Part shown: one piece after another, positions 1,358-21,856 of the stretch
How the letters are laid out: each line of letters begins with the position of its first letter
Numbering within the stretch: the stretch's first letter is position 1
Source of the DNA: a virus
Taxonomy: Duplodnaviria > Caudoviricetes
Reading direction: 5' to 3' (one strand)
Virus record (IMG/VR): IMGVR_UViG_3300046008_000188
Span: 1-63,272 of that record
Length of the DNA: 63,272 nt
The notes under the pieces: model-generated
Databases searched by the model: none
Told to the model about the DNA's origin: nothing
What the model saw: the letters and a program-made list of their open reading frames with translations, nothing else
Made by a program: the position numbers and the translations under genes

Positions 1358-1741
1358 ATGCCAAGCACATCTAAAAAACAGCATAATCTTATGGCCGCAG
1401 CTGCACATAACCCTAAATTTGCTAAGAAGGTGGGGGTTCCTACTAAAGTAGCAAAAGAGTTTAACGAAGCTGACAAAGGCAAGACCTTCAAGAAAGGCGG
1501 CGTATCATTAGCCGTTGGTCGTGGTGAGAAACTAGCTACAGATAAAGGTGCTGGGCTTACTGCCAAAGGTCGTGCAAAGTATAACGCAGCAACTGGGTCT
1601 AACTTAAAAGCTCCTCAGCCTGAAGGTGGCCCTCGTAAAAAATCGTTTTGTGCCCGTATGTCAGGTATGCCAGGCCCAATGAAAGACGAGAATGGCAAAC
1701 CTACTCGTAAAGCAGCGTCATTAAGACGTTGGAAATGTTAA
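1358..1741 (+). CDS. Small basic two-module protein (C-terminal DUF6321-like RKKSFCARM...SLRRWKC module)
   Basis: Likely start is ATG 1358 (MPSTSKKQ). Lys-rich; the two modules are joined by FKKGG. Confidence 0.65.
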   Translation: MPSTSKKQHNLMAAAAHNPKFAKKVGVPTKVAKEFNEADKGKTFKKGGVSLAVGRGEKLATDKGAGLTAKGRAKYNAATGSNLKAPQPEGGPRKKSFCARMSGMPGPMKDENGKPTRKAASLRRWKC

Positions 1742-1753
1742 TAAGGAATTATT

Positions 1754-1969
1754 ATGGCTAAAGAAAATACAAAGATGGACATGGCGCAAGACAAAGCTAT
1801 GGTTAAAAAAGCTGTAGGTATGCACGATAAACAAATGCATGGCGGTAAAAAAACTGACATGTCAAGCCTTAAAAAAGGTGGCTGCGCTAAGATGGCTAAA
1901 GGTGGCTCTGCTTCATCTCGCGCTGACGGCTGCGCAGTTAAAGGCAAAACTAAAGGGATGATAATATAA
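1754..1969 (+). CDS. Small basic Lys/Gly/Met-rich protein
   Basis: RBS AAGGA; ends MAKGGSASSRADGCAVKGKTKG. Confidence 0.7.
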   Translation: MAKENTKMDMAQDKAMVKKAVGMHDKQMHGGKKTDMSSLKKGGCAKMAKGGSASSRADGCAVKGKTKGMII

Positions 1970-2244
1970 TGGCTGAAGACGTAATTAAAAGCGCAGCAAC
2001 AAAAGGTGGTATGCAAGGTGGTATGGGTAAAGCAAAAGCTGCGCCAAAAGAACCTGTAGAACCTATCCCGTCTGAAATCGTGGACAAACTACAAGACATG
2101 AAAAACAAAAAAGCCGCTGAAAATTATCAAAAGACTAAAGATAATAAAGCTGGCGGTATGATTAAAATGGCTAAAGGCGGTTCAGCTTCAGCTCGTGCAG
2201 ATGGCTGTGCTCAACGCGGTAAAACACGCGGTAAGATGGTGTAA
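1969..2244 (+). CDS. Small basic protein with a C-terminus paralogous to 1754..1969
   Basis: TAATG coupling; ends MAKGGSASARADGCAQRGKTRG. Confidence 0.7.
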   Translation: MAEDVIKSAATKGGMQGGMGKAKAAPKEPVEPIPSEIVDKLQDMKNKKAAENYQKTKDNKAGGMIKMAKGGSASARADGCAQRGKTRGKMV

Positions 2245-2246
2245 TC

Positions 2247-2546
2247 ATGCGGGCGTCTCGTGGTATGGGGGCAATAGCCCCTTCTAAAATGCCTAAGAAA
2301 AAGATTATCAAACGCAAAGATAATCCTGAAGACGTAGAGATGTTTAAAAAGGGTGGGAAGGTAAACTTACCCGCTAGTAAAAATGTCAATGCCGCAGGCA
2401 ACTACACAAAACCTGAAGTTAGAAAGCGTATAGTGTCTGAAGTTAAGTCGGCTGCAACACACGGTACAGGCGCAGGGCAGTGGTCAGCTAGGAAAGCACA
2501 GTTAGTCGCTAAGAAGTATAAAGCCGCAGGTGGCGGTTATAAATGA
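2247..2546 (+). CDS. Small basic two-module protein (GQWSARKAQ motif, DUF5872-like)
   Basis: Very Lys/Arg-rich; modules joined by MFKKGG. Confidence 0.65.
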   Translation: MRASRGMGAIAPSKMPKKKIIKRKDNPEDVEMFKKGGKVNLPASKNVNAAGNYTKPEVRKRIVSEVKSAATHGTGAGQWSARKAQLVAKKYKAAGGGYK

Positions 2547-2794
2547 GCGCGTTAGCTAAAAGCCAGAAGTCTTTAAAAGCTTGGGGCGACCAGAAATGGA
2601 CTACTAAGTCAGGTAAAAAATCATCAGAAACGGGTGAACGGTATTTACCAGAAAAAGCAATAAAGGCCTTAACACCTGCAGAATATGCGGCAACAACCAA
2701 AGCAAAACGTGAAGGTAAGGCGGCTGGTAAACAGTTCGTAGCTCAGCCCGCTAAGATTAAAAGCAAAGTTAAGCCATATAGGAAAATTAAATAA
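2543..2794 (+). CDS. Small basic protein (LKAWGDQKW...GERYLP motif, DUF5872-like)
   Basis: Overlaps the upstream stop region; conserved-looking W/Y motifs. Confidence 0.65.
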   Translation: MSALAKSQKSLKAWGDQKWTTKSGKKSSETGERYLPEKAIKALTPAEYAATTKAKREGKAAGKQFVAQPAKIKSKVKPYRKIK

Positions 2795-2919
2795 TGCGAT
2801 GCTACTTTAGCTTTATTACTGGAGTGATGGTTGGGCTAGAGTTAGAGGAAAGCGAAGACTGTAATTATTTGATTGTAGAGCTTTTCATCGTGCAATTCAT
2901 ATTTGAATGGGAAAAATAA
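2794..2919 (+). CDS. Small hypothetical protein (41 aa)
   Basis: Read manually: MRCYFSFITGVMVGLELEES...FEWEK. TAATG-coupled and fills the intergenic gap. Confidence 0.5.
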   Translation: MRCYFSFITGVMVGLELEESEDCNYLIVELFIVQFIFEWEK

Positions 2920-2920
2920 A

Positions 2921-3847
2921 TTGGCAACCACAGGTGCATCATCATTTAATCTAGACCTTAATGACCTCGTAGAAGAGGCTTTTGAGCGTTGTGGTAAAGA
3001 GCTTCGTACTGGTTATGACTTGCGCACCGCGCGACGTAGCTTGAACTTACTTACTGTTGAGTGGGCAAACCGTGGCATAAACCTATGGACAATTGAACAA
3101 GGCACGATTGTGATGGCGACTGGGCAGGCGGTATACCCACTACCTGTTAATACGATTGACTTGCTAGACCAAGTGGTACGTCAGAATAACGGCACTACAA
3201 ACCAAATTGATATCAACATCAACCGTATATCCGAGTCAACCTACTCTACAATCCCTAACAAATTAACACAGGGTCGCCCTATACAGGTGTGGATTAACCG
3301 CCAGTCAGGTGCATCAAATGCTACGACAGTGACTTTGAACGGTGGCATATCTGCTACAGACACTACAATTACAGTAAGCTCTACAGCTAATCTATCCTCA
3401 TCAGGGTTTATACAAATTGATAACGAAGTTATTAGTTACCCAAATGTAAGTGGCAACCAGCTTATCAACTGTGCCCGAGGCCAGAACAATACAACCGCAG
3501 CAACTCATCTAACAGGTGCTTCGTTAACTACTTTAAACCTTCCGTCAATTAATGTATGGCCAACACCAAACGCTCAGGGTAATCAGTACACCTTTGTTTA
3601 CTGGCGTTTACGTCGGGTTCAAGATGCGGGTGATGGTGTTAATACACAGGATATTCCGTTCCGATTCTTAAACTGTATGGTTGCTGGCTTAGCTTATTAC
3701 TTGTCAATAAAACTACCTGATGTACCCTTAGAGCGTATAACAGGTCTTAAAGCAGACTACGAACAACAGTTCCAATTAGCGGCGGATGAAGATAGAGAAA
3801 AGGCATCAATACGGTTTGTTCCACGTAATATGTCGTACACGAGGTAA
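2921..3847 (+). CDS. Head-tail adaptor/connector-like protein with an inserted beta-rich domain
   Basis: Helical N-terminus (VEEAFERCG..ARRSLNLL..W.NRG) and C-terminus (VWPTP..LAYYL). Probable TTG start at 2921, right after the upstream stop. Confidence 0.6.
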   Translation: MATTGASSFNLDLNDLVEEAFERCGKELRTGYDLRTARRSLNLLTVEWANRGINLWTIEQGTIVMATGQAVYPLPVNTIDLLDQVVRQNNGTTNQIDININRISESTYSTIPNKLTQGRPIQVWINRQSGASNATTVTLNGGISATDTTITVSSTANLSSSGFIQIDNEVISYPNVSGNQLINCARGQNNTTAATHLTGASLTTLNLPSINVWPTPNAQGNQYTFVYWRLRRVQDAGDGVNTQDIPFRFLNCMVAGLAYYLSIKLPDVPLERITGLKADYEQQFQLAADEDREKASIRFVPRNMSYTR

Positions 3848-3849
3848 TC

Positions 3850-4239
3850 ATGCCTACTAAGTATGCTAGTGGTAAACACAGTATTGCCGAGTGCGACCGT
3901 TGTGGTCAGCGCTATAAATTGGTACAGCTTAAAAAGCTAACTATTAAAACGAAACAAGTAAGCATTAAGGTGTGCCCAGAGTGCTGGGACCCTGACCAGC
4001 CGCAACTACAACTAGGTATGTACCCAGTTAATGACCCACAAGCGGTGAGAGAACCTCGTCCTGATACTAGTTACTTAGTGTCCGGTATAGGCCCAGATGG
4101 TAATCCAGAGGGTGGTAGTAGAGTATTCCAGTGGGGATGGAACCCTGTAGGTGGGGCAAGAGGAAGTGACACGGGTTTAACACCTAATGACTTGATTGCC
4201 CAAGGACAAGTAGGTATAGTAACGGTATCAACAACTTAG
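3850..4239 (+). CDS. Zn-ribbon protein (CDRC...CPEC)
   Basis: Two CxxC motifs; lies in the late operon. Confidence 0.65.
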   Translation: MPTKYASGKHSIAECDRCGQRYKLVQLKKLTIKTKQVSIKVCPECWDPDQPQLQLGMYPVNDPQAVREPRPDTSYLVSGIGPDGNPEGGSRVFQWGWNPVGGARGSDTGLTPNDLIAQGQVGIVTVSTT

Positions 4240-4249
4240 GAGTATTAAC

Positions 4250-4444
4250 ATGGCATACAAATCAGGCGCCGATGGCGTAGCAAAACAAGGTAAGACAAAA
4301 GGTAGAAACTTAGGTGATTCAGGTCCAAACGTAGCAATTGAAAACGGTCCTAAATCTACAGGTAGTAAAGGTGGCAAAACTAATGCTGACATGAAGAAAA
4401 TGGGTCGTGGCTTAGCTAAGATTGCTGCACAGAAAAAGGGATAA
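4250..4444 (+). CDS. Small basic protein (ADGVAKQGKTKG motif)
   Basis: RBS AGGAG; shares a motif with the ORFs at 1754 and 1969. Confidence 0.65.
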   Translation: MAYKSGADGVAKQGKTKGRNLGDSGPNVAIENGPKSTGSKGGKTNADMKKMGRGLAKIAAQKKG

Positions 4445-4448
4445 TATC

Positions 4449-4718
4449 ATGGGTAAATCAGCACAAGACTCAACAGGGTTTGTTTTTCCTACAGGTGGTG
4501 GTAACGATATTGGTATGTATAAACAGCCAATGCCAAATGCAGATACGCAGCCAGAAAGCATTATCTCTAAATCAGGTAATGGCGTAAATGAACTTAACAT
4601 AGCCGTAGGTAATACAAGTAAAGGTAATGTTAAAGGCATGAACCCATACGGTACAGGCGAAATGCGTGGTTATGGCGCTGCAACTAAAGGTCGTAAGATT
4701 AGCGGAAAGATGGGTTAA
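4449..4718 (+). CDS. Small Gly-rich basic protein (RGYGAATKG C-terminal motif)
   Basis: Likely start is ATG 4449 (MGKSAQ). Confidence 0.6.
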   Translation: MGKSAQDSTGFVFPTGGGNDIGMYKQPMPNADTQPESIISKSGNGVNELNIAVGNTSKGNVKGMNPYGTGEMRGYGAATKGRKISGKMG

Positions 4719-4727
4719 GGTAGGTCA

Positions 4728-5645: not shown

Positions 5646-5658
5646 TTAGGAGAAAGAC

Positions 5659-6099
5659 ATGGCAATTTCACAAGCAATGTGCACGAGCTTTAAAGTTCAG
5701 TTATTGAGCGGCGCACAAAATTTTAATACAGGTACAACAAAGGTTTATAAAATCGCGTTGTACACATCAGCTGCAACATTAGGTGCAAGTACAACTACTT
5801 ATTCAGGTACTTCAAACGAAGTAGCTTCTGGCGGCGGTTATACTACTGGTGGTAATACACTTTCAGTATCTCAAGTCCCTACAGATGGTGGTTCAGGTAC
5901 TACAGCGTTTATTGACTTTGCGGATACTACATGGTCAGCAGCAACAATTACTGCTCGTGGTGCGTTGATATATAACAGCACTGATGACACTGCGGTTGCC
6001 GTGTTGGATTTTGGTTCAGATAAAACATCAACTGCTGGGGACTTTACAATCATATTCCCAACAGCAAACGCAACAGACGCAATCATTAGAATAGCCTAG
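5659..6099 (+). CDS. Tail/fibre-associated structural protein
   Basis: Beta-rich, KIALYT...GYTTGG...ARGALIYN pattern; RBS AGGAG. Confidence 0.6.
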   Translation: MAISQAMCTSFKVQLLSGAQNFNTGTTKVYKIALYTSAATLGASTTTYSGTSNEVASGGGYTTGGNTLSVSQVPTDGGSGTTAFIDFADTTWSAATITARGALIYNSTDDTAVAVLDFGSDKTSTAGDFTIIFPTANATDAIIRIA

Positions 6100-6113
6100 A
6101 ATAGGAGTCTCAA

Positions 6114-9100
6114 ATGGCTCTAGTTCTTAAAGACCGGGTTAAAGAAACCTCAGTATCGACTGGTACTGGGGCAATTGCGCTTGATGGTGCTACAGGTGCA
6201 TACCAAACATTTAGTATAATTGGTAACGGTAATACAACCTATTACTGTATAGTAGGGCAAACTACTAGTGAGTGGGAAGTGGGTATTGGTACATACGACT
6301 CTGGTGCTGATTCCATATCGCGTGACACTATCCTAGCCTCGTCTAATAGTAATACCATTGTTACATTTTCTGCAGGTACTAAAGACGTATTTATTACCTA
6401 CCCGTCTGAGAAAGCCATCTACGAAGAGCCAGATGGCGACACGCTAATTAATGCGGGTCCGATTACAATTCTAGGCCCTGGCGTAAGCGGGATTCCAACC
6501 CCATACGGGGATACACTAGGTCGCTTTTACGGTAATGTAGACAGCTTCCAACAACTGTATTTGCAAAACCAGTTTAATGGTGTAGATGCATCTTCAGACA
6601 TTGTAGCCTACAATAACTTAGGTGATGGCACTAACTACTTTGTCGATATGGGTATTGTTGGGTCCAGCTACTCATCAATGTCTTTCCCTATATTTTCCGC
6701 AAACTGCGCGTATGTATATAACTCTGGTTTAACTACGGGTACAGGCGCAGCTGGTGAGACTTCAGAACTACTTATCGGTACAGGTACACTTAACAGTGAC
6801 TTGGTGTTGTTTACTGGCGGCGTTGATACAGCCAATGAAGCCGTACGTATTTCAGGTGCAGACCAAACAATCGAAGTTCAAAAAGGTGTAACCTTAAATG
6901 AGACCCTTGACGTTACCGGTGCAGCATCGTTCGGCAGCACTGTTTTATTGGATGCGAACCCGACAACTGCCTTACAAGCTGCCACAAAACAATACGTAGA
7001 CAATGCGGTAACTGCAGGGGTACATATCCACGAGCCAGTTCGCGTCGTTGCAGCTAGTAATTTAACCGCTACTTACGCTCAAGGCGGTACTACCTTTAAC
7101 ATTACAGATATCACATTAACTACTACAGTTACAACGTCTGTAAACCACGGCTTATCCGTAAACGACCAGATTTGGCTAACTAGCACAGCTGGTAACGGGC
7201 TATCAACTAACACTGCTTATTTTGTATTTTCAACACCAGCTTTAAATACCTTAACCCTATCACTAACTTTTGGTGGTGCTCAGATTACAGGGTTAACCAA
7301 TGCGGCAGGGTTAACGTATGCTACAAGAGCAAACTCAGGTGTTGGTGCTACGCTTACTAATTCAGGCACTCAAGTTGCTCTTTCCATTGATAGCGTTTCG
7401 CTTTCAAGCACTAACCGAGTCCTAGTAAGAGGCCAAACTAACGCTGAAGAAAACGGTGCGTATACAGTTACTACTGTAGGTAGTGGGTCTACTAACTGGG
7501 TGTTAACTCGCGCTACCGATTCAAATATGGTCAATCCTTCAGACCCAAATGGTCTGGGTACAGGCGATTATTTCTTTGTGCAAGAGGGTTTAACTGGGAC
7601 TGGAGACTCGTTCGTATTAACTACTGAACCTAACACAATGATTATTGGCTACACGGCCTTAACATACACACAGTTCAGTGGCGCTATTACTTACGTTGGC
7701 GGTACAAACATTGATGTTACAGGTCAAACCATATCACTAACGGGTACAGTTGCTCCTACAAACGGCGGCACAGGCACAAGCACTGTAACTACAGGCGACT
7801 TGCTCTATGGCTCTGGCACAAACGCGTGGTCTAAACTAGGCTTAGGTTCTGCATATCAATCCTTAGCAGTAAACGGTTCAGGTACACAAGTCGAGTGGAA
7901 TGCAGTTAACCTATCTAGTGCTGTTGCAGTTACCGGAACACTAGGCGCAACATACGGCGGTACGGGGCAAACGACTTACGCAACTGGAGACATTCTTTAC
8001 TCTTCAGCTACAAACACATTAGCTAAGTTGGCGGGTAGTACATCTACTTCTAAACATTTCTTATCCCAAACAGGTACAGGTTCCGCTTCTGCAGCGCCAG
8101 CGTGGGTTCAATTATCAGCGACTGATATTACTTCTGGTACACTACCTGCGACTCGAGGTGGTACAGACAACAGCTCTTACGCAGTTGGTGACTTGCTCTA
8201 TGCGGATACTACGACTTCATTAGCTAAACTTGCTGACGTTGCTACGGGCAATGCATTGATATCAGGTGGTGTAAGCGCAGCGCCAGCTTGGGGTAAAGTA
8301 GCTCTTGCTTCTGCAGTATCAGGGACACTACCTATTGCTAACGGTGGTACAAATTCAACAGCTACTCCTACAGCCGGGGGTGTTAACTATGGTACAGGCA
8401 CAGCCCACGCGTTTACTAGTGCTGGAACATCTGGACAAATATTAACTTCTGCCGGAGCTTCTGCACCTGTATGGGCAAATAACCCGCCAGCATTCCCTAG
8501 TGGTACAGTAATGTTGTTCGTTCAAACAGCCGCGCCAACAGGTTGGACTAAATCAACAACGCACGACAATAAAGCCTTAAGGATTGTAAGCGGAACAGCA
8601 AGTTCAGGCGGCTCAGTAGCGTTTACGACAGCGTTTGCAAGTCAATCAGTTACGGGTAGTGTGGCGGCAACGGCAGCGGCAACGGCAACCAATCAGGCTA
8701 CAACTGCTGGTGGTAGTGTAGGTGCAACATCTGCGGCAACAGCGACCAATCAGGCTACAACTGCGGGTGGTAGTGTAGGTGCAACATCTGCGGCAACAGC
8801 GACCAATCAGGCAACAACTGCAGGTGGCACAGTAGGTGTGTCAGTAAGTGCAGGCACTTTAGCGGTAGGGGCAGGAACATTTGCGGTTGGCGCAACCACA
8901 TTAGCAACAACACAAATTCCTAGCCATACGCACACTGCGGCTGTTGTAACAAGTGACCGTGCTAATGCCCAATTTAATCCTGGAACGGCTGGGGCTGGCA
9001 ATACAGGTGCAACAGGTGGAGGTGGTTCACATACACATGGATTAACTGGCGCACCAAGCATTTCAGGTTCACCAAGTGTAACAGGCACATCCTTTACAGG

Positions 9101-9335
9101 CACTAGTCATAATCATACGCAAGACGCGCATAGCCATACAAGTGGTGGAACATTTACAGGCACAAGCCACAACCACACGCAAGACGCACATAGCCATACA
9201 AGTGGTGGAACATTTACAGGCACAAGCCACAACCACACGCAAGACGCGCACAGCCACACTTCAGGCGCATTTACAGGTAATGCAATTAATTTAGCAGTAA
9301 GTTATGTTGATGCAATTATTGCAACTAAAGACTAA
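6114..9335 (+). CDS. Long tail fibre protein with collar-like domain and His-rich needle tip
   Basis: AATKQYVD motif, GGTG repeats, FPSGT..F.QTAAPTGW collar-like motif, multiple HxH motifs near the C-terminus. Confidence 0.85.
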   Translation: MALVLKDRVKETSVSTGTGAIALDGATGAYQTFSIIGNGNTTYYCIVGQTTSEWEVGIGTYDSGADSISRDTILASSNSNTIVTFSAGTKDVFITYPSEKAIYEEPDGDTLINAGPITILGPGVSGIPTPYGDTLGRFYGNVDSFQQLYLQNQFNGVDASSDIVAYNNLGDGTNYFVDMGIVGSSYSSMSFPIFSANCAYVYNSGLTTGTGAAGETSELLIGTGTLNSDLVLFTGGVDTANEAVRISGADQTIEVQKGVTLNETLDVTGAASFGSTVLLDANPTTALQAATKQYVDNAVTAGVHIHEPVRVVAASNLTATYAQGGTTFNITDITLTTTVTTSVNHGLSVNDQIWLTSTAGNGLSTNTAYFVFSTPALNTLTLSLTFGGAQITGLTNAAGLTYATRANSGVGATLTNSGTQVALSIDSVSLSSTNRVLVRGQTNAEENGAYTVTTVGSGSTNWVLTRATDSNMVNPSDPNGLGTGDYFFVQEGLTGTGDSFVLTTEPNTMIIGYTALTYTQFSGAITYVGGTNIDVTGQTISLTGTVAPTNGGTGTSTVTTGDLLYGSGTNAWSKLGLGSAYQSLAVNGSGTQVEWNAVNLSSAVAVTGTLGATYGGTGQTTYATGDILYSSATNTLAKLAGSTSTSKHFLSQTGTGSASAAPAWVQLSATDITSGTLPATRGGTDNSSYAVGDLLYADTTTSLAKLADVATGNALISGGVSAAPAWGKVALASAVSGTLPIANGGTNSTATPTAGGVNYGTGTAHAFTSAGTSGQILTSAGASAPVWANNPPAFPSGTVMLFVQTAAPTGWTKSTTHDNKALRIVSGTASSGGSVAFTTAFASQSVTGSVAATAAATATNQATTAGGSVGATSAATATNQATTAGGSVGATSAATATNQATTAGGTVGVSVSAGTLAVGAGTFAVGATTLATTQIPSHTHTAAVVTSDRANAQFNPGTAGAGNTGATGGGGSHTHGLTGAPSISGSPSVTGTSFTGTSHNHTQDAHSHTSGGTFTGTSHNHTQDAHSHTSGGTFTGTSHNHTQDAHSHTSGAFTGNAINLAVSYVDAIIATKD
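8656..8830 (+). repeat. About 3 x 57-bp tandem repeat in the fibre (GSVGATSAATATNQATTAG)
   Basis: AATCAGGC.ACAACTGC recurs at 8691, 8748 and 8805. Confidence 0.9.
9093..9280 (+). repeat. 3 x 60-bp tandem repeat in the fibre (FTGTSHNHTQDAHSHTSGGT)
   Basis: Lines 9121, 9181 and 9241 begin with the near-identical AAGACGC.CA.AGCCA.AC. Confidence 0.9.
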
Positions 9336-9337
9336 TT

Positions 9338-10338: not shown

Positions 10339-10349
10339 AGGATTAAACC

Positions 10350-11594
10350 ATGGCAAGCACCTATTCAACGAGTCTAAAGCTCGAACTTATTGGTAACGGC
10401 GACCAGTCGGGTACGTGGGGCACGACCACAAACACAAACTTAGGTACATTACTTGAGCAGGCTATTACTGGTGTTCAGGCTATTACCATGGCCAATGCTG
10501 ACGTTACATTAACTAGTTTAAATGGCGCCTCAGACCAAGCTCGTAATGCAGTGCTTGTAGTTGGTGGTACTAATGCGGCAATCAGAAATGTCATAGCCCC
10601 TGCGGTAAATAAACTATATGTCATAAGAAATAATACAGTTGGCGGCTTTGCTATTGTAATTAAAACAAGTGCCAGTACCGGCGTGTCTATTACTAACGGC
10701 ACAACAGCTTTTGTGTATTGCGACGGCAGTGAGTTTTACGCAGCTATTCCACCAAGTGCTTCTACTAATACAGCAAGTACTTTAGTCCTACGCGACGGGT
10801 CAGGTAATTTTGCAGCGGGTACGATAACTGCTAACTTGACGGGTAATGTTACAGGTAATGCAAGCACTGTCACAACCAATGCTAACTTAACAGGCGCTGT
10901 GACTTCAGTAGGTAATGCTACGTCATTAGGTTCATTTACTTCAGCTAACTTAGCAGCGGCTCTTACAGACGAGACAGGTACAGGCGCAAACGTATTCGCA
11001 AACAGCCCTACTTTAGTTACTCCAGCATTGGGTACCCCGTCTTCAGGAAATTTAGCCAACTGCACATTCCCGACTCTAAACCAAAACACAACGGGAACAG
11101 CAGCTGGGTTATCATCTACATTAGTAGTAGGTAGTGGTGGTACTGGAATAACCTCAGCTGGTACAGCGGGCAACGTGTTAACAAGTAATGGCTCTGCATG
11201 GGTAAGTTCAGCTCCAGGAGCGGCTTTCCCTAGTGGTACAAGAATGTCATTTAATCAAACCGCCGCTCCAACTGGCTGGACTAAAGATACATCATCCGCA
11301 ATAAACGATGCGGTTTTGCGTTTAGTTACAGGTTCGGTTTCAAGTGGTGGCTCAACAGGTTTTAGCTCATGGAATAGCACTACGGCAACAGGGGCGTACA
11401 CTTTAGCAACTGCTGACATTCCTAGCCATACTCACACTGCGGCTGTTGTAACATCTAGTATGGTTAATTCTCAATTTCAGACTGGAACGGCTGGTGCTGG
11501 CGATACAGGTGCGACAGGTGGTGGTGGCTCACATAGCCATTCACTTTCAAACAATATAAAATATTACGATTTTATAATAGCGAGTAAAAACTAA
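10350..11594 (+). CDS. Second (short) tail fibre protein
   Basis: N-terminus MASTYS..LELIG..WG; C-terminal collar/needle region paralogous to 6114..9335. Confidence 0.8.
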   Translation: MASTYSTSLKLELIGNGDQSGTWGTTTNTNLGTLLEQAITGVQAITMANADVTLTSLNGASDQARNAVLVVGGTNAAIRNVIAPAVNKLYVIRNNTVGGFAIVIKTSASTGVSITNGTTAFVYCDGSEFYAAIPPSASTNTASTLVLRDGSGNFAAGTITANLTGNVTGNASTVTTNANLTGAVTSVGNATSLGSFTSANLAAALTDETGTGANVFANSPTLVTPALGTPSSGNLANCTFPTLNQNTTGTAAGLSSTLVVGSGGTGITSAGTAGNVLTSNGSAWVSSAPGAAFPSGTRMSFNQTAAPTGWTKDTSSAINDAVLRLVTGSVSSGGSTGFSSWNSTTATGAYTLATADIPSHTHTAAVVTSSMVNSQFQTGTAGAGDTGATGGGGSHSHSLSNNIKYYDFIIASKN

Positions 11595-13832: not shown

Positions 13833-13834
13833 TT

Positions 13835-14332: not shown

Positions 14333-14813
14333 AGAAGGGCTTAAGCTACTAAAGCACCACGAGGGTTTTCGTAAGAAGCCCTATCAGTGCGCAGCTGGAA
14401 TCTGGACGATAGGTTACGGTCATGCTATGTATGCTGAGCAATTAAAGATACCCTCTACACCTGAAGGAATGGCTGCTCGTAAAGCATTTCCATTAAAACC
14501 TGAAGATAATCGTATATGGAGTAAAGAAGAAATTGACGCATTATTGGTTAAGGATGTCGTACGATTTGAGCGAGCAGTTGACCGATACATTCGTGTACCG
14601 CTTAGACAAAATGAATTTAACGCTCTTATATCTGCTGTTTATAATCTTGGTGCTGGCTGGCTGCAAAGAAGTCCCGTTCGTCAAAAGATTAATCGAGGCG
14701 ACAAAGAGGGTGCTATGGAACAGCTTCTCAAGTATAATAAAGGCGGCGGTAAAGAGCTTAAAGGGTTGACTTTACGCCGTAAAGATGAAGTCGCCTTGTT
14801 TAGGAAAGAATAA
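14319..14813 (+). CDS. Endolysin, GH24 phage lysozyme
   Basis: HEG...Y.C.AG.WTIGYGH catalytic motif and GLTLRRKDE C-terminus; start at ATG 14319. Confidence 0.92.
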   Translation: MKVSEEGLKLLKHHEGFRKKPYQCAAGIWTIGYGHAMYAEQLKIPSTPEGMAARKAFPLKPEDNRIWSKEEIDALLVKDVVRFERAVDRYIRVPLRQNEFNALISAVYNLGAGWLQRSPVRQKINRGDKEGAMEQLLKYNKGGGKELKGLTLRRKDEVALFRKE

Positions 14814-14814
14814 C

Positions 14815-16743
14815 ATGCCATTAAAGAAACTAGAATTTAGACCGGGATTGAACCGAGAAGGTACAGACTATGCCAATGAAGGCGGTTGGTACGACGGCGA
14901 CAAGATTCGTTTTCGTTCTGGTTTCCCTGAAAAGATTGGTGGCTGGTCTCGCCTATCAAATAATACTTACTTAGGCGTTGCTCGTTCTTTATGGAATTGG
15001 ATTGACTTAGATGGTTCAAACTACCTAGGCGTGGGCACTAACATTAAGTACTACATTGAGCAAGGTGGTACTTATTACGACATTACTCCTTTTAGTTATA
15101 TTGGAGGAGCAGGTGTTGCTACCTTTGCGGCTACTAACGGGTCAAGCACCCTTACTGTTACTGATGCGGTGTATAACCCTTCAGTAGGTGACTTCGTTGT
15201 ATTTAGTGCTGCCGTATCACTAGGCGGAAACATCACTGCGGCAGTGTTAAACCAAGAATACGAAGTGCTTACAGTTCCTTCTACTACAACCTACACTATA
15301 TCAGCACGAAGTGCTACAACTGGACTACCTGTATTAGCTAATGGGTCAGATGTCGGAAACGGCGGTGCCGGTACTATCGCATCATACGAAGTACCTATTG
15401 GATTAAACGTATTTACAATCGGCACTGGTTGGGGTGCTGGGCCCTGGAGTCGAAGTACTTGGGGTTCTGCATATACATCAGGTATCGCGCAACAGCTTCG
15501 CTTATGGTCTAACGATAACTTTGGTCAAGACCTTGTTATCGCACCTAGAGGTGGTGGTATATATTACTGGAAAGACTCAACGGGAGTTAATACTAGGGCA
15601 GTTTCATTAAATACTCTTTCTACTAATGAAGGGTATGCTGGAACCTATGTACCAAACACAACTAACCAAGTCATAGCATCCGCTATTCAGAAATTTGTTA
15701 TTGCTATGGGTGCCAACTCATATTTGTCAGGCACTCCTAACACTCCGTTTAATCCGATGCTTGTTCGATGGTCAGACCAACTTAACCCATATGAGTGGGT
15801 TCCAGCTATTACAAATCAGGCTGGTGAATTTGCATTAACTAGTGGTTCATTTATTGTAGGCGCTAAGGCCACTCGCCAAGAGATTCTAATCTGGACTGAT
15901 TCAGCGTTATATTCAATGCAGTATCTAGGCGCTCCCTATGTGTGGGGTTTTAATATCTTGATGGATAATATTTCTATCATGTCACCTAACGCAATGATAA
16001 CTGTAAACAACGTAACCTACTGGATGGGTGGGGACAAGTTCTATATGTATTCCGGACGCGTAGAAACTTTACCTTGCGCATTGCGTCAGTATGTCTTTAA
16101 CGACATAAACAAAGACCAAGCATTCCAAGTGTTTGCTGGGGGTAACGAAGGCTACAACGAAGTCTGGTGGTTCTATGTAAGTAACTCAAGCGGTGGTACT
16201 ACGGTTGATAAGTACGTAATCTATAACTATGTTGACCGTGTTTGGTACTATGGCTCTATGGCTCGCAGTGCTTGGCTAGATTCAGGCATTCGTCAGTTTC
16301 CTATGGCAGCAGATTATAACAACCGGATTCTTTATCACGAGTCTTCTGTTGATGATAACGCAGGTGACACTACCCTACCTATCGCAGCTTATGTGCAGTC
16401 TTCTGACTTTGATATTGGCGACGGTCATAACTTTGGCTTTGTATGGCGCATATTACCAGACGTAAACTTTAATGGCTCTAATGTAAATCAACCGTCTGTA
16501 ACCATGACTGTTAAACCCCGTCAAAACTCAGGGTCTCCTTACGGTGCGGCTAATAACCCGTTAGTGCGAAGCTCGGATAACTTTAGTACAGGTCAGGTAT
16601 ACAACGTGCAGGAATTTACAGGTCAGGTATATACTCGCATACGCGGTCGTCAGATGGCATTTAGAATTGAATCGTCAGACCTCGGAGTGTCTTGGCAACT
16701 AGGTATGCCTCGTATTGATATTAGACCAGATGGGCGTAGATAA
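14815..16743 (+). CDS. Tail nozzle/DNA-stabilisation protein (tail tubular protein B / P22 gp10-like beta-propeller)
   Basis: About 640 aa, Trp/Gly-rich beta protein with a VRWSDQ motif; located before the ejection genes. Confidence 0.7.
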   Translation: MPLKKLEFRPGLNREGTDYANEGGWYDGDKIRFRSGFPEKIGGWSRLSNNTYLGVARSLWNWIDLDGSNYLGVGTNIKYYIEQGGTYYDITPFSYIGGAGVATFAATNGSSTLTVTDAVYNPSVGDFVVFSAAVSLGGNITAAVLNQEYEVLTVPSTTTYTISARSATTGLPVLANGSDVGNGGAGTIASYEVPIGLNVFTIGTGWGAGPWSRSTWGSAYTSGIAQQLRLWSNDNFGQDLVIAPRGGGIYYWKDSTGVNTRAVSLNTLSTNEGYAGTYVPNTTNQVIASAIQKFVIAMGANSYLSGTPNTPFNPMLVRWSDQLNPYEWVPAITNQAGEFALTSGSFIVGAKATRQEILIWTDSALYSMQYLGAPYVWGFNILMDNISIMSPNAMITVNNVTYWMGGDKFYMYSGRVETLPCALRQYVFNDINKDQAFQVFAGGNEGYNEVWWFYVSNSSGGTTVDKYVIYNYVDRVWYYGSMARSAWLDSGIRQFPMAADYNNRILYHESSVDDNAGDTTLPIAAYVQSSDFDIGDGHNFGFVWRILPDVNFNGSNVNQPSVTMTVKPRQNSGSPYGAANNPLVRSSDNFSTGQVYNVQEFTGQVYTRIRGRQMAFRIESSDLGVSWQLGMPRIDIRPDGRR

Positions 16744-17054
16744 TGGCGTATAACACCCCTTTAAAAAATACGCAGTTAGTTCCACCAAAAGCACCTAACT
16801 TACCCATTGCGCCAGTTGAGTATAGCCAACAATATATAGACCAACTAACCAATGCATTACGACTTTACTTTGGACAGATTGATAATATCACACAGGGGTT
16901 AACAATACCTGATTCAGGCACGACAGCAAACAGGCCTATAAGTACAACACTTGTTAAATTACAGATAGGGCAATACTATTTTGATACTACCATAGGAAGA
17001 CCTATTTGGTGGAACGGTACTAACTGGATAAACGCCGCTGGAACAATAGTTTAA
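16743..17054 (+). CDS. Small virion protein
   Basis: Translationally coupled; GQYYFDTTIGRPIWWNGTNW module. Confidence 0.6.
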   Translation: MAYNTPLKNTQLVPPKAPNLPIAPVEYSQQYIDQLTNALRLYFGQIDNITQGLTIPDSGTTANRPISTTLVKLQIGQYYFDTTIGRPIWWNGTNWINAAGTIV

Positions 17055-17056
17055 TA

Positions 17057-17085
17057 TTGTATAGGCGCTACATTGATGATATTAT
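17057..17085 (+). promoter_or_regulatory. Possible sigma70 promoter for the ejection-protein genes
   Basis: TTGTAT-N17-TATTAT with TG at the extended -10, in one of the largest intergenic gaps of this arm. Confidence 0.4.
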
Positions 17086-17141
17086 TCACTAAACTATATA
17101 TAGTAGGAATTTACTATGAAACACTATAATCGAGGTGCATT

Positions 17142-18248
17142 ATGGAAGGCATGCTAATAGGCGCCGCAGTTGGCGGTGGTACAGCGTTATTAACTGGCGA
17201 AGATGTCCTTACAGGCGCGTTAATAGGTGCGGGTACGGCAGGTCTTACTTCGGGTGCACAAGGACTTTTAGGCGCAACTAATACAGCTGCACTAGACACA
17301 GCAGTAGATACAGGTGTAGGTGTTGGTACACCCGCAGCAATTGAAGCAGCAGGTACATCTCAATTAGCGGCGCAGCAAGCTATGCTACAACCTACAACAA
17401 CGGCTATTGGGGGTGCTAATCTTACCACTGCTGGGGGTCAAGGGTTTGCTGCAAGTGCAGCTCCACAAGTTCCTGGGTCTACTGGTTTTTGGCAGGGTGC
17501 TAATACCGCTGCAAGTACAGTACCTCAAGCCGCTGTGTCTGACGTTGTATTACCTGGTGCACAACAAGGCATAGCCGCAGCAAAACCCGGCTTAATGGAT
17601 AGGATTAGCACTGGGTATAGTAATCTATCTGATATGGAAAAACTAGGTGTAGGTATCGGCGGTACTGCATTAGTAGGTGCTGCTATGGCCCCTGGTGTGC
17701 AAATGCCTGAAGAAGATGAATACAAAGGCCCTTTAAGCAAGTTTAAGTATGACCCTAACAAGTTTAACGCATCCCGTATAACACCAAACGTATATAGGCC
17801 TGGCTATGCTCAAGGTGGTATTGCTGCACTGGCAGGTGGGGGGTATCCAATGGGTAGACAAGATAACACTCAATTTGCAACTCCAACTCAAATGCCTATG
17901 AGCGCAGAAGTACTTCGTGCAGACTACGAACCAGTTGAAATGGCTATGGGTGGTATCGCTGGATATAGTCTTGGTGGGTATGCTGCGGGGGGTAATCCTC
18001 GTTTACTTAAAGGCCCAGGTGATGGTATGTCTGATGATATCCCTGCTACAATTGCTAATAAACAACCAGCTCGATTGGCAGACGGTGAGTTTGTAGTTCC
18101 CGCTGACGTGGTGTCACATCTAGGTAATGGGTCTACTGATGCAGGTGCTAAACACTTATATAAAATGATGGAAAATGTACGTAGAGCTCGTACGGGTAAA
18201 AAAGCACAAGGTAAACAGATAAAATCAGAGAAGTTCCTACCAGCATAG
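17142..18248 (+). CDS. Internal virion/ejection protein with a C-terminal GPGDG.SD.IPA..L.DGEFVVPADVV domain
   Basis: Hydrophobic Gly/Ala-rich N-terminus and multiple xAxGG motifs; RBS GAGGT. Confidence 0.65.
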   Translation: MEGMLIGAAVGGGTALLTGEDVLTGALIGAGTAGLTSGAQGLLGATNTAALDTAVDTGVGVGTPAAIEAAGTSQLAAQQAMLQPTTTAIGGANLTTAGGQGFAASAAPQVPGSTGFWQGANTAASTVPQAAVSDVVLPGAQQGIAAAKPGLMDRISTGYSNLSDMEKLGVGIGGTALVGAAMAPGVQMPEEDEYKGPLSKFKYDPNKFNASRITPNVYRPGYAQGGIAALAGGGYPMGRQDNTQFATPTQMPMSAEVLRADYEPVEMAMGGIAGYSLGGYAAGGNPRLLKGPGDGMSDDIPATIANKQPARLADGEFVVPADVVSHLGNGSTDAGAKHLYKMMENVRRARTGKKAQGKQIKSEKFLPA

Positions 18249-18255
18249 GATTAAA

Positions 18256-18687
18256 ATGACTTTACAAATTAAGGTGGTCGATACAAACTTCGTCCACCAA
18301 GTATGGCCTCGGGTTGAAGGCTTTATTGCCACTGCTGTAGCTTCAATGGATAATTTTCCTGAGTGGAGCAGAAACTATAACCTAGAGCATATTAGAATGT
18401 ATGTAACTTCTGGTGAATGGTATTTGTTTGTTGCCATAGATGAGACCGGAGATATACATGGGTGTGCAACAGTATCATTAGTTAACTGCCCTTTGCATAG
18501 AGTAGCATTTATTACTTCTACTGGTGGTAAGTTTATAGCAACTAAAGAAGTGTTTGCGCAGCTAAAACGGATACTAAAAGAGTTAGGTGCTACAAAGATA
18601 CAAGGCTATGGCAAGGATTCTATAGTGCGGTTATGGAGGCGGTTTGATTTTGAGCCACGTAACACTCTATTTGAAGTGCTTATATAA
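18256..18687 (+). CDS. GNAT-fold-like protein (copy 1)
   Basis: Size about 140 aa with L..LGATKIQGYG...RLW.R.DF pattern; located among the ejection genes. Confidence 0.55.
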   Translation: MTLQIKVVDTNFVHQVWPRVEGFIATAVASMDNFPEWSRNYNLEHIRMYVTSGEWYLFVAIDETGDIHGCATVSLVNCPLHRVAFITSTGGKFIATKEVFAQLKRILKELGATKIQGYGKDSIVRLWRRFDFEPRNTLFEVLI

Positions 18688-19103
18688 TGCAAGTATCGCT
18701 GGTACCTGTAGAGTACGTTGAAAATGTATGGCCTCATATAGAAAAGTATTTAGAGGGTCCCGCCAAGTATTCATACGGTAGGTACGAAGTAGAGGATATT
18801 AAACAAGGGTTACTAACTAAGCCACAACATCTTTGGATTGCATTTGAAGGTGCCAAGATATACGGTGCGGTTGTAACTACGTTTGGATACTACCCTAGAA
18901 TGGTGTCGCTAGATATGATATTTACTGGTGGCGTAGAATTAAAGAAGTGGAAAGACCCCATGCTTGCCTTACTACAGAAGTTTGCCAAAGAGCACGGGTG
19001 TAAGATTATAGAAAGCTATGGTCGCCCCGGTTGGGAAAAGATTTTTAAAAATGATGGATACAAATCGCGGTTTGTGTTTTATGAGTTGCCTGTGGAGAAA
19101 TAA
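18687..19103 (+). CDS. GNAT-fold-like protein (copy 2, paralogue)
   Basis: FAKEHGC..IE.YGRPGWEK motif; VWP..E N-terminus shared with copy 1. Confidence 0.6.
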   Translation: MQVSLVPVEYVENVWPHIEKYLEGPAKYSYGRYEVEDIKQGLLTKPQHLWIAFEGAKIYGAVVTTFGYYPRMVSLDMIFTGGVELKKWKDPMLALLQKFAKEHGCKIIESYGRPGWEKIFKNDGYKSRFVFYELPVEK

Positions 19104-19105
19104 GT

Positions 19106-21856
19106 ATGAGTAAGCACTTTGACATGTTGCCTGAAGAAGCCTTCCAAAAAGACCCATTTGGAAATATTAAGCTATACAAAAAAGGTGGCGGTGGTCCTAC
19201 AAATACTGAAGTGCAACAGTCTAACATCCCGGAATACGCTCAGCCTTACGTTGAGTCAATGCTTGGTGCAGCTCAACAACAAATATTTCAGGGAACGCCT
19301 GGCGCAGACGGCAGTTTTAATGTAACAGGCTTTCAACCATACACGCCCTATAGTACCAATATGAATGACTACGTTGCTGGGTTCTCTCCACTCCAACAAC
19401 AAGCACAAACTGGTGCAGCAAACTTAGCAATGCCAGGTCAATTCGATACAGCTACAGGTATAGCGGGTGCATCAGGTTTTGGTTCACTAGGCACCGCTGG
19501 TCAAGCTGTAAACTTAGGTCAAGCGGCTACTAATGTTGGTATGGGTGGTTTAGGTTACGGTGCTTTAGGTGTGGGTTACGGTGCTTTAGGTGCTCAACAA
19601 GGCCAACAAGCCGCAGGGTATGGTGCACTGGGTGCTGGGTATGGTATGCAAGCTGGCCAAGCGGGTGCTAATTTTGCACAACAAGCCACCGACCCTAACG
19701 CAGTTCGTTCGTACATGAACCCGTACCTACAGTCTTCTCTAGCTCCACAAATCGATGCAATGCGTCGTCAGTATGGCATTACAGGCACACAGCAACAAGG
19801 TCAAGCAACTCAAGCGGGCGCATTTGGTGGCACTCGTGAAGCCCTTATGGCAGCGGAAAATAATCGTGCTATGAACTCCGCTATTGATGCAACTATATCT
19901 AAAGGATATAACGACGCCTTCAACAATGCTCAACAGCAACAACAGTTCGGTGCTAACTTAGGTCTACAAGGCCAACAAGCTGCTATGCAAGGTGCTGGTA
20001 TGGGTATCACTGGCCAAAACGCGGCTATGCAAGGTGCGGGACTTGGTATGCAAGGTGCTGGTATGGGCTTACAAGGTATTGGTACCGCTTTACAAGGTTA
20101 TGGTCAAGGTCAACAAGGTCTCAGCACTGCACTGCAAGGTTATGGTCAAGCGGGTCAAGCAGCTTCTACTCTAGGTAATTTAGGCGCTAATCAGTTAGCT
20201 GCGCAACAAGGCATCATAGGCACACAAAATCAATTTGGTACTGCTCAACAACAAGCAGAGCAACAAAAAATAGACCAAGCAATCCAGAACTACGCAATGC
20301 AACAACAAGCCCCAATGCAATCTCTTGCACAAATGAGCGGCTTACTACGCGGCCTACCGTTGGAAGCTAGGACAACACAGTCTTATCAAGCTGGACCAGG
20401 CGCATTACAATCATTGGCTGGTATAGGAACTGGTATCGCTGGTGTTGCAAGTATGACTAAAGCCGAAGGCGGCACTGTCAAGTCTTACGCTGGTGGTGGT
20501 ATTGTTGGCTACGCAGGCGGCGGTGATGTAATGAGCCAAGATAATGCAGAAGGTATTGCACAAGGCTTAAACGCAGAACAACTACAACAAGTGCAACCAC
20601 GCACATTGCCTGACTACATCCGCATTCCACTACTTAATCAGAAAGTACAAGAACAACAAGCGGCCCAAGAAGCCATGGCTGCGCAACAAGGCATGGCAGA
20701 CCAAGAGTCTCTCAAACAACAAGTACTAGCTCAGGCTGAAGACCTAGGCATTACTGGCGCGCAATCTAACTTACCTGATGAGGCAATGATGGCTGGTGGC
20801 GGTATCGTGTCGTTTGTTAAAGGTGGTATAAATGCTCCGAAGTTTGATTACGAACCTACTGCTATGGACTATGGCTACTTAGATAAAATAGCTAAAAGAT
20901 TAAATAACCCAGCAACAGGATTGCCATATACCTTTGAAGAAAAAGCCGAAGAAAACAGGGCTAGAGAAGGGAAGTTAGGTATTAAAGATTTAACTGAAGA
21001 TGAATTAGCCACGCTAAAGAAAAAAGAAGATAAGTTAGCAGATAGAGAAAATCGTGCTCAAGGGCTAGGGTTGTTGGCTGCATCAAAAGCTATATTTAAC
21101 GCTAAACCTGGTAGATGGGTTGGTGAAGGTGCAGGTGCATATGGTACAACTACCGGTGCTGAGCTTGAAAAAGTTGATGCTCTACGTGAGAACTATGACC
21201 AGCAAAAAAGTTTGGTTCGTAGCAAACAAATGGAACAAAAACGTGCAATGCTTGCGGGTGATACCGCAGATGTTAACCGCATCGAAAAAGAAATCCAAGC
21301 TATTCAAGCTAAACAAGGTGAAGCAGCTAATGCTAACATTGCAGCTAAAGATACGGCTAGACTTGAAGGCACTAAAGCTGAGTATAAATACGCACAAGAT
21401 ATGGCTCTAGCAGATAAAGAAGGTGGGTACAAAGTTGCTGCCGGAGCTGCAAGTAATATCGGTGTGGTGCAGTTGCCTAAGAGTTTGTATGATATGATAG
21501 CAGGTAGAGACACGCAGTTTGATGCACTTAAAAAACAATTTGATGCTTCTAAACTCGGACAAGCGTATCAAACAGCTCTAACTAATAGAGCATCATTAAA
21601 AACTGTTAGTGCTGACGATGCAAAAATTATTGAAGATGCTGAAAAAGAACTTGCTAACATTAAAGAAAGCGTTAATAAAACATATAGCCCTTCAATTAGA
21701 AATCAAATTAAGCAAGCTAGAGCGTATGGCCACGATATTTCTGCGGAAGAAGAAGCAAACATATTAAAAGGTATTACTCCAGTACCAACCGGTAATACTG
21801 CTGCGCAGTATAATTTAGACAAATACATGAGCAATAATAAAAACCCTAAAGGATAG
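19106..21856 (+). CDS. Ejection/DNA-pilot-like internal virion protein
   Basis: Gly/Gln/Ala heptad repeats, YMNPY and GAFGG.R motifs, helical C-terminal half. Confidence 0.7.
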   Translation: MSKHFDMLPEEAFQKDPFGNIKLYKKGGGGPTNTEVQQSNIPEYAQPYVESMLGAAQQQIFQGTPGADGSFNVTGFQPYTPYSTNMNDYVAGFSPLQQQAQTGAANLAMPGQFDTATGIAGASGFGSLGTAGQAVNLGQAATNVGMGGLGYGALGVGYGALGAQQGQQAAGYGALGAGYGMQAGQAGANFAQQATDPNAVRSYMNPYLQSSLAPQIDAMRRQYGITGTQQQGQATQAGAFGGTREALMAAENNRAMNSAIDATISKGYNDAFNNAQQQQQFGANLGLQGQQAAMQGAGMGITGQNAAMQGAGLGMQGAGMGLQGIGTALQGYGQGQQGLSTALQGYGQAGQAASTLGNLGANQLAAQQGIIGTQNQFGTAQQQAEQQKIDQAIQNYAMQQQAPMQSLAQMSGLLRGLPLEARTTQSYQAGPGALQSLAGIGTGIAGVASMTKAEGGTVKSYAGGGIVGYAGGGDVMSQDNAEGIAQGLNAEQLQQVQPRTLPDYIRIPLLNQKVQEQQAAQEAMAAQQGMADQESLKQQVLAQAEDLGITGAQSNLPDEAMMAGGGIVSFVKGGINAPKFDYEPTAMDYGYLDKIAKRLNNPATGLPYTFEEKAEENRAREGKLGIKDLTEDELATLKKKEDKLADRENRAQGLGLLAASKAIFNAKPGRWVGEGAGAYGTTTGAELEKVDALRENYDQQKSLVRSKQMEQKRAMLAGDTADVNRIEKEIQAIQAKQGEAANANIAAKDTARLEGTKAEYKYAQDMALADKEGGYKVAAGAASNIGVVQLPKSLYDMIAGRDTQFDALKKQFDASKLGQAYQTALTNRASLKTVSADDAKIIEDAEKELANIKESVNKTYSPSIRNQIKQARAYGHDISAEEEANILKGITPVPTGNTAAQYNLDKYMSNNKNPKG

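Follow-up and report, generated by a model that had tools for sequence, protein, structure and literature searches.

The peptidase OpdA prefers Gly or Ala around the scissile bond. In phage P22, according to its RefSeq record, this host protease cleaves 20 N-terminal residues off the ejection protein gp7, at a junction that reads ...S-Y-P-E and then K-G-G-K-G-G. The mature protein starts with Lys-Gly-Gly-Lys-Gly, and deletion of the leader leaves about 60% of the burst; gp7 binds procapsids through amino acids (aa) 21–154, and the ejection proteins are recruited by the scaffold (PMC8402733). OpdA, a zinc oligopeptidase of family M3, has been implicated in the breakdown of signal peptides and in P22 development (PMC5124237). 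In the present work, we analyzed a hydrophobic-x-x-Gly-Gly motif, [FYML]xxGG, in virion proteins encoded by the Caudoviricetes record IMGVR_UViG_3300046008_000188. The window is the whole 63,272-base record, a lone and nearly complete virus record with no host sequence attached, and all counts for "late" and "early" proteins refer to it. An earlier note on this DNA had named 15 copies of the motif in six late proteins and proposed that these proteins are packaged precursors, cut or recognized at Gly-Gly by a phage factor in the manner of adenovirus and African swine fever virus (ASFV).

The capsid targeting sequence of T4 measures about 10 aa, and the phage prohead protease removes it by cutting at Leu/Ile-x-Glu. 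The consensus of adenain of adenovirus has a hydrophobic residue two positions before Gly-Gly, and the cut falls after Gly-Gly. Leaders of the bacteriocin C39 system are also cut after Gly-Gly, during export via an ATP-binding cassette transporter, and have a consensus of their own. Diverse internal proteins of T4 have only a targeting sequence in common (PMC3012670). For polyvalent proteins, Iyer et al. (2017) proposed processing by zincin-like peptidases (PMC5512222); the words "glycine" and "linker" do not occur in the main text of that paper, and a connector of the kind considered here is not described there. In searches of the open-access literature, neither this connector nor portable leaders of ejection proteins were found described; the only relevant paper returned on leaders of ejection proteins was the one on P22.

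We propose that the motif serves as a protein-level connector in exposed, disordered joints between independently evolving, shuffling modules of internal, presumably ejected, virion proteins. This connector reading is itself well supported. At N-termini, the motif closes leaders of 8–34 aa, which belong to several conserved families and are found on different ejection-protein families; aa 1–28 of ORF 19106 form a leader of this kind. Inside proteins, it joins modules that are separate genes elsewhere, as in the products of open reading frames (ORFs) 19106, 1358, and 2247 and in polyvalent proteins of 800–1700 aa in relatives. The joint would probably act as a recognition site.

Occurrence and form of the motif

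All 15 named copies were located in their ORFs, and an overlapping MMAGG was found in addition to them. The loose form [FYML]xxGG occurred 39 times in the 79 window proteins (23.2 expected from per-protein shuffles) and 16 times in the six named proteins (about 4.8 expected from shuffles); in the four small ORFs taken singly, it was not significant (P 0.01–0.19). In a Gly-matched test of the six proteins, F/Y/M/L occupied position −3 in 12 of 29 Gly-Gly sites against a background of 15% (binomial p = 7e-4), and a hydrophobic residue stood at other offsets in 3–6 of the 29 sites. Position −3 was filled in this way in 15/75 sites of the other late proteins and in 7/30 sites of early proteins, neither of which was significant. 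The strict form [FYML][AK]xGG was found 13 times in the six proteins, with 1.2 expected and a maximum of 6 in 300 shuffles; the other late proteins held a single copy (1.85 expected) and early proteins none (0.82 expected). Enrichment over a Gly-matched background holds for the six proteins, and the tests are biased because these six were picked for carrying the motif.

The motif was also considered as a general feature of C-terminal ends. This was rejected because the 14 copies observed there (8.0 expected) are within the shuffle range (maximum 18); 11 of the 14 come from one small-protein tail family.

In three unrelated protein sets, the motif had the same extended form: Y/F/M/L, then Ala (34–70%) or Lys, any residue, Gly-Gly, any residue, and Ala/Val/Pro. 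In each set, the hydrophobic residue occupied position −3 relative to the first Gly, and Gly-Gly was often extended into a longer Gly run. A tandem spacing of 8 residues was the commonest in two of the three sets.

Unlike the biased in-window tests, conservation in homologues is independent support for the motif at the level of sequence. ORF 17142 (17142–18248, plus strand) encodes a 368-aa internal protein, with which we designate the A family. It has Gly-zipper helices at its N-terminus, is leaderless in the window, and carries the connectors YAQGG, LAGGG, MAMGG, YSLGG, and YAAGG at aa 222–284 (nucleotides (nt) 17805–17993). At least 7999 homologues were detected. In an alignment of 53 of the 120 listed homologues, hand-chosen to span 46–87% identity, the columns A223, G225, G226, G270, G271, G278, G283, and G284 were invariant, and each of 30 homologues inspected (every fourth of the 120) contained 4–9 copies. 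Homologues of the small ORFs were taken from 80 related contigs, fetched with the scaffold protein; the motif was present in 12/12 homologues of ORF 1754, 9/9 of ORF 1969, 16/16 of ORF 2247, and 13/27 of ORF 1358. The positional conservation that the earlier proposal implied is present.

Glycine codons differed among copies of the motif, and Gly codon use equaled the background of the same genes. Since the codons vary between instances, the constraint is on the protein and not on the DNA. A DNA-level element that encodes the motif incidentally, for instance a linker for recombination or a structured RNA, would agree with the coincidence of the motif and the points of module exchange. It was rejected on the codon variation, and the nucleotide identity that remains, given the variable positions, is too low for homologous exchange; we regard it as extremely improbable.

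The C-terminal 80 residues of the ORF 17142 product (aa 287–368, nt 18000–18245) were almost invariant in the 53 homologues, which are otherwise 46–87% identical; the homologue list was skewed toward this segment by the word-based search. Despite its near-invariance, the segment was modeled by AlphaFold2 (AF2) as disordered, with a predicted local distance difference test score (pLDDT) mostly below 50. It had no family, PDB, or Atlas match, and it ends a 580-aa protein in Caulobacter phage RW. The AF2 model of the whole protein reached a pLDDT of 50.6 and gave no fold for the motif region or for the invariant C-terminus (below 50). Prediction of a homo-oligomer with four copies of aa 205–368 scored 0.09 against a mark of 0.42, which is evidence neither way. 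The products of ORFs 17142 and 19106 had no match among PDB sequences, and an ESM Atlas search with the C-half of ORF 17142 yielded unnamed viral clusters only.

N-terminal leaders

ORF 19106 (19106–21856, plus strand) encodes a protein of 916 aa, the B family, composed of a leader, a Gln/Gly-rich N-half, joint 1, a helical module of about 70 aa, joint 2, and a helical C-half. The leader (aa 1–23) is followed by the connector YKKGG (nt 19175–19189) and a Gly run, together aa 24–30, the whole covering 19106–19195. AF2 predicted a small N-terminal element and then disorder at aa 26–38.

Among 49 B-family proteins of related contigs, 43 had a leader of 8–34 residues (median 23) before a Gly run of 2–9, four started at the Gly run, and two were without it. 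F/Y/M/L/W stood within three residues before the longest Gly run in 32 of the 43 leaders; in 8 more, a hydrophobic residue preceded the first part of a split Gly run (by eye). These leaders formed at least six recognizable families, and the same families were found on the unrelated A family, whose 120 homologues comprised 41 with leader and motif, 24 leaderless, 4 other, and 51 with an N-terminus that was not assessable. The same leader type was present on two different proteins in 7 of 162 scanned contigs, many of them fragments (L100, L112, L114, L124, L134, L137, and L144). The motif thus behaves as a common signal on internal proteins, as suggested earlier, in that a single genome among the relatives can bear the same leader and Gly run on more than one protein. 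Within the window, only ORF 19106 carries its leader type, and ORF 17142 is leaderless. Out of frame upstream of ORF 17142, at 17116–17130, an ATG and the codons M-K-H-Y-N correspond to the first five leader residues of homologue P0029. This match of five residues is weak; it may be a remnant of a lost leader.

One leader family, designated (a), had ten invariant columns in a 15-sequence alignment. With an E cutoff of 1e-3, its profile detected 328 cluster representatives, of which 213 also passed 1e-10; in all of the best 150 of the 328, the match started at residues 1–6. From these 150, the 119 listed proteins of at least 150 aa were grouped (31 shorter ones were dropped) by BLAST comparison of the parts after residue 45. 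They fell into 15 cargo groups of 91, 10, 3, 2, 2, and 2 members and nine singletons, some of which possibly belong to the two large groups as divergent members.

Leaderless forms starting at the Gly run occurred in the B family (4/49), in the A family (24 of 69 assessable, ORF 17142 included), and in P32 of APSE-1. These natural homologues indicate that the leader is dispensable. In Proteus phage Brookers, gp11, a gp7 homologue, has a leader ending ...LLPMHGYMKGGGDGG, of which about 15 residues resemble by eye the leader type of L116, L133, and L155, and the gp7 homologue of APSE-1 starts MGGSSG. With the Brookers leader and the M-G-G start of APSE-1, the gp7 family shows a leader, an alternative leader, and no leader, as do the proteins studied here.

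By analogy with P22 gp7, the only precedent with experimental support, we infer that the leader of the N-terminal copies is most probably removed just upstream of x-G-G by a host zinc peptidase of the oligopeptidase A type (M3). The mature protein would start with x-G-G, where the natural leaderless homologues start, and removal at this point would account for leaderless homologues beginning M-x-G-G or M-G-G. M3 peptidases were found in 11 of 14 control bacteria. The internal copies, in turn, would be either uncut hinges or sites cut by an enzyme other than oligopeptidase A.

Leaders that are conserved, strictly N-terminal, and portable across many cargoes, with two or more proteins per genome, would also be expected of a docking signal with no obligatory cleavage. 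In such a case, leader and connectors would bind the scaffold, the portal, or the coat interior for procapsid loading, in a T4-like manner, and repeated copies would add avidity. The common targeting sequence of T4 internal proteins (PMC3012670), the recruitment of ejection proteins by the P22 scaffold (PMC8402733), and the disorder of the motif regions when modeled alone agree with this explanation. It is at odds with the dispensable leader of P22 and the binding of gp7 to procapsids via aa 21–154 (PMC8402733), with the frequency of leaderless homologues in both families, and with a giant internal protein that is devoid of the motif. We consider docking of this kind to be unlikely, if appealing for the leaders.

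Internal joints and module shuffling

Joint 1 of ORF 19106 (aa 418–482; 20357–20551) contains the tandem YAGGG-IVG-YAGGG at nt 20486–20524, and joint 2 (aa 552–589; 20759–20872) contains MAGGG-IVS-FVKGG at nt 20789–20827. The N-half and C-half were adjacent separate genes in contigs L086, L088, L094, and L123; L096 and the window have them fused in a single ORF. The first motif of six long homologues started 6–18 residues past the end of the N-half homology, and separate C-half proteins of relatives carried double motifs with the same 8-residue spacing as joint 2. By eye alone, ORF 19106 resembled split genes of Synechococcus phage MinM2 and phage RW; BLAST at E<1e-6 did not recover this likeness. 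The AF2 model of ORF 19106, based on a 39-row alignment, had a mean pLDDT of 62.6; all motifs were in segments with pLDDT<50 (aa 26–38, 418–482, and 552–589), located between confident helices. A Foldseek search with this model against PDB gave nothing below E = 1, only generic helical hairpins.

ORF 1358 (1358–1741, plus strand; 127 aa) consists of an N-module (aa 1–43), the connector FKKGG (aa 44–48, nt 1487–1501), and a DUF6321 domain (aa 62–125; Pfam E = 3e-23), with phrog_16759 of PHROG on aa 1–44. PHROG and Pfam split the protein at this point into two modules, with the motif as the boundary. The N-module also matched the N-termini of "virion structural protein" families of 845 and 263 aa (PHROG). 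Among longer proteins, DUF6321 was found at the C-terminal end of 800–1700-aa proteins with SLT, ART-PolyVal, or DUF6973 domains, and it also occurred as an N-terminal fusion to adaptor proteins. The loose motif occurred 386 times against 104 expected in 120 long DUF6321 proteins. The polyvalent ones carried it 6–12 times between domains, and six long proteins inspected in full had motifs between the SLT, ART-PolyVal, DUF6973, and DUF6321 domains. One motif was located about 19 residues upstream of DUF6321 in the long proteins, as in ORF 1358. A literature search on DUF6321 found nothing.

ORF 2247 (2247–2546, plus strand; 99 aa) has a conserved leader at aa 1–32, FKKGG at 2343–2357, and a C-module at aa 46–99 (phrog_17747). 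In longer forms (P0242–P0247), this leader is retained and is followed by inserts with flanking motifs and by alternative C-modules. The Lys-rich product of ORF 1754 (1754–1969, plus strand; 71 aa), which had no Pfam or PHROG family, carries LKKGG at 1868–1882 and MAKGG at 1892–1906, followed by a DGCA-x-KGKTKG tail. ORF 1969 (1969–2244, plus strand; 91 aa) has MAKGG at 2167–2181 and the same C-terminal tail element. ORF 4422/4449 (4449–4718, plus strand), which was absent from the earlier list, contains a conserved [FY]-P-x-G-G-G-N-D site (FPTGG, nt 4485–4499) that is kept in the homologues of relatives. Small modules flanked by the motif were found as free genes, as adaptor fusions, or as parts of polyvalent proteins; in T7-like cyanophages, free genes for such modules stand between those for scaffold and coat. 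The motif is thus common to several virion-module proteins, and its position at module boundaries, reported earlier for the window, was confirmed for ORFs 1358, 2247, and 19106 and extends to the DUF6321 polyvalent proteins.

A second element, D-G-[C/I/V]-A-x-[K/R]-G-K-T-[K/R]-G, stands behind the connector at the C-terminal ends of the ORF 1754 and 1969 products (1900–1960 and 2190–2235) and also opens ORF 4250 (4260–4300). The D-G-[C/I/V]-A element recurs in MinM2 and in many related contigs, often extended by a terminal M-K-K-G-G-x-C.

The location of the motifs in low-confidence linkers of the ORF 19106 model would fit a plain flexible hinge as well. Gly-Gly would then provide flexibility, the hydrophobic residues would cap the modules, and strings of modules would be stored and threaded through the tail channel with nothing recognizing the motif. 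The length of the Gly run varies from 2 to 9, and the variable positions track local composition (Lys where the protein is Lys-rich, Ala and Gly where it is Gly-rich), as such a hinge would allow. However, the preferences for an aromatic residue or Met at −3, Ala at −2, and Val/Ala at +2, together with the 8-residue tandem spacing, recur in unrelated families, and the motif columns are invariant over wide divergence, whereas ordinary linkers are less conserved. A hinge that nothing recognizes is accordingly a doubtful explanation, to which we assign a low probability.

Candidate proteases

In agreement with the earlier note, no prohead protease was recognizable in the window (about 80 proteins against Pfam, 58 against PHROG). 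The same searches revealed no clan CE or other GG-specific protease and no cysteine-clan peptidase, and the proposed analogy with adenovirus and ASFV is not supported. The register does not match either: the hydrophobic residue stands three residues before the first Gly and not at P4, and other offsets were not enriched.

Two candidate metallopeptidases are encoded in the window. The first is located in the giant internal protein of 2549 aa (ORF 21860; 21860–29509, plus strand), which has an LPD38 domain (Pfam E = 2e-20) and the sequence HEVVH at aa 1149 (nt 25304–25318). This protein contained no connector motif (1.6 expected). No Pfam zincin family was found on its HExxH region, even at E up to 10. 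The region at aa about 1080–1307 (25100–25780) aligns around HEVVH with PDB entry 9sfn_G (E = 4e-4), a protein of 1337 aa named "internal virion protein"; a literature search for the entry 9SFN gave no citing paper. The second is a gene (45771–47015, minus strand) with a putative metallopeptidase domain DUF2201_N and a VWA-like domain (Pfam E = 2e-27 and 4e-18), adjoined by an AAA ATPase gene (47042–48115, minus strand). It was the sole Pfam-recognized peptidase-like gene in the window. It stands among early and middle genes, and its PHROG label "HNH endonuclease" is an apparent mislabel.

A phage-encoded protease, either the HExxH region of ORF 21860 or DUF2201_N, might cut every motif, either while the head matures or once the proteins are ejected, and so release separate products from fused and polyvalent proteins. 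In its favor, the motif coincides with places where genes occur both fused and split, zincin-like processing has been proposed for polyvalent proteins (PMC5512222), and the giant protein combines HEVVH with the absence of the motif while a DUF2201_N gene is present. Among ten near-complete relatives carrying the module, however, DUF2201_N was detected in 6 and the HExxH region in 5 (single-sequence search, limited reach); no Pfam peptidase family lies on this region, and HExxH was absent from 5 of 6 inspected motif-rich polyvalent proteins. Cutting at tandem and C-terminal copies would free mere 2–8-residue peptides. To our knowledge, no maturation protease is known in the T7-like cyanophages with DUF6321 genes, which also counts against such an enzyme. 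Cleavage at every motif by a phage protease therefore appears improbable. The phage factor of the earlier note is disfavored by the patchy occurrence of both candidates and by the precedent of P22 gp7, which is cut just before x-G-G by a host M3 oligopeptidase and whose leader is not needed for packaging.

Assessment of the proposed explanation

For the favored explanation as a whole, that is, connectors, leaders, and likely trimming of the N-terminal copies by a host M3 peptidase, we estimate a probability of roughly 0.5. Several results weigh against it. Family-level enrichment of the motif was unspecific: terminase homologues scored 80 against 15.5 expected and ORF 5659 homologues 14 against 1.9; scaffold homologues also scored (10 against 2.6), and the high ratios of terminase, ORF 5659, and scaffold stem from single inherited sites. 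Homology of the mature part to gp7 was not detected (BLASTP E = 0.09; hhalign 4% with gp7 alone and 0.8% with nine gp7-family proteins). The leader type of ORF 19106 was found on just four other proteins, all of the B family, and on none of the nine gp7-family proteins. The ten invariant columns of leader family (a) suggest that this leader is more than a discarded peptide and binds something. The substrates of oligopeptidases are short peptides, and such enzymes cannot explain the internal joints or the 33–44-aa N-modules of ORFs 2247 and 1358. Finally, tandem copies were 5–8 residues apart, and some copies were 2–3 residues from the C-terminus (11 tails of one small-protein family); for such copies, a binding or structural element fits better than a cut site.

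A broader version of the proposal would treat the leader, Gly run, and connectors as a general grammar of head-carried, ejected proteins of tailed phages. The leader families, being interchangeable, would address or restrain their cargo, and every connector would be a cut site, for a host M3 peptidase or an undiscovered protease, by which fused and polyvalent polyproteins become separate effectors; the long-unexplained cleavage of P22 gp7 by OpdA would be one instance. We regard this extension as speculative and rather unlikely.

Internal and ejected phage proteins are hard to recognize and study, and the signature with its leaders offers a way to find and split them in metagenomic phages. For the ORF 17142 family alone, at least 7999 homologues were detected. 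The proposal also gives a testable general context for the isolated case of a host peptidase trimming P22 gp7 and points to where polyvalent effector proteins might be processed. If it is true that leaders are addressing or safety peptides, they could possibly be used as tags for loading foreign proteins into phage heads.

Gene layout of the window

The head genes are located at the end of the window. Terminase (55553–57821) and portal (57833–60376) are followed by a 138-aa GroES-like protein (60563–60979; PHROG co-chaperonin E = 3e-8, Pfam Cpn10 E = 0.054), a coiled-coil scaffold-like protein (60990–61955), and the first 78 codons of a coat gene (63039–63272), which match the 303-aa coat of contig L017 and are cut by the window end. 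The GroES-like ORF, placed between the portal and scaffold genes, may encode a co-chaperonin with which the phage assists coat folding. The ORF that runs in from the window start (1–667) encodes a different Gly-rich protein and not the rest of the coat. With the coat gene cut at one end and an unrelated ORF at the other, the record is without the last approximately 225 coat codons, and it is rated complete despite their absence.

The cluster of small Lys-rich ORFs (1358–2794) is followed by two SU10-type adaptor-like genes (starting at 2903 and 4728) and then, before 14785, by fibers and a lysis cassette. The internal-protein module (14785–29509) ends in the 2549-aa protein with LPD38, and the replication genes are on the minus strand. 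A nucleotide search of the module against cultured phages gave no match; its distant cultured relatives are MinM2 with its Planktothrix twins and phage RW.

The fiber protein of ORF 6114 (1073 aa) has triplicated segments of about 19–20 residues at its C-terminus (window 8500–9300), including His-rich T-S-H-N-H-T-Q-D-A-H-S-H units. A His-rich C-terminal region is common to ORF 6114 and ORF 10350 (10350–11594). Between ORFs 17142 and 19106, at 18256–19103, two adjacent paralogous proteins of about 140 aa are encoded. They had no Pfam family and, for one of the two only, weak PHROG matches; by eye, their sequence pattern looks acetyltransferase-like.

Comparison with known systems

As in adenovirus and ASFV, a hydrophobic...Gly-Gly signature is common to several virion core proteins. 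Unlike in adenovirus, the hydrophobic residue is one position farther from Gly-Gly than in the adenain consensus, and the P22 precedent, unlike adenovirus and ASFV, cuts before Gly-Gly and not after it. N-terminal leaders of 15–30 aa ending in Gly-Gly are also typical of bacteriocins exported by C39 transporters. Here, however, no C39 domain was found in the window (Pfam), and the proteins are intracellular virion proteins.

The giant ORF 21860 with its LPD38 domain, and the DUF6321 proteins of relatives that combine SLT and ART-PolyVal, resemble polyvalent proteins. The motif-bearing proteins of the window itself differ from these in being small or ejection-protein-like, and LPD38 is in the neighboring giant protein. 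In a possible parallel to the T4 targeting sequence, one N-terminal leader is carried by two proteins in 7 related contigs (in the window by ORF 19106 only), whereas neither a prohead protease family nor a Leu/Ile-x-Glu-type site was seen in the window.

The closest likeness is to gp7 of P22, a podovirus without a prohead protease, in which a leader is followed by an aromatic residue, two or three residues, and Gly-Gly. ORF 19106 likewise has a leader (aa 1–23) and then YKKGGGG, i.e., a leader of about 20 aa and x-Gly-Gly on a protein of the ejection module, and its N-half has the same build of leader, Gln-rich body, and Gly-zipper tail. The spacing from the aromatic residue to Gly-Gly is off by one residue in P22 itself. 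Since the mature parts are not detectably homologous, the likeness would reflect a shared device and not family membership. In the proteins studied here, the signature also joins internal modules and closes many leader families on many cargoes, two uses that go beyond what is described for P22.

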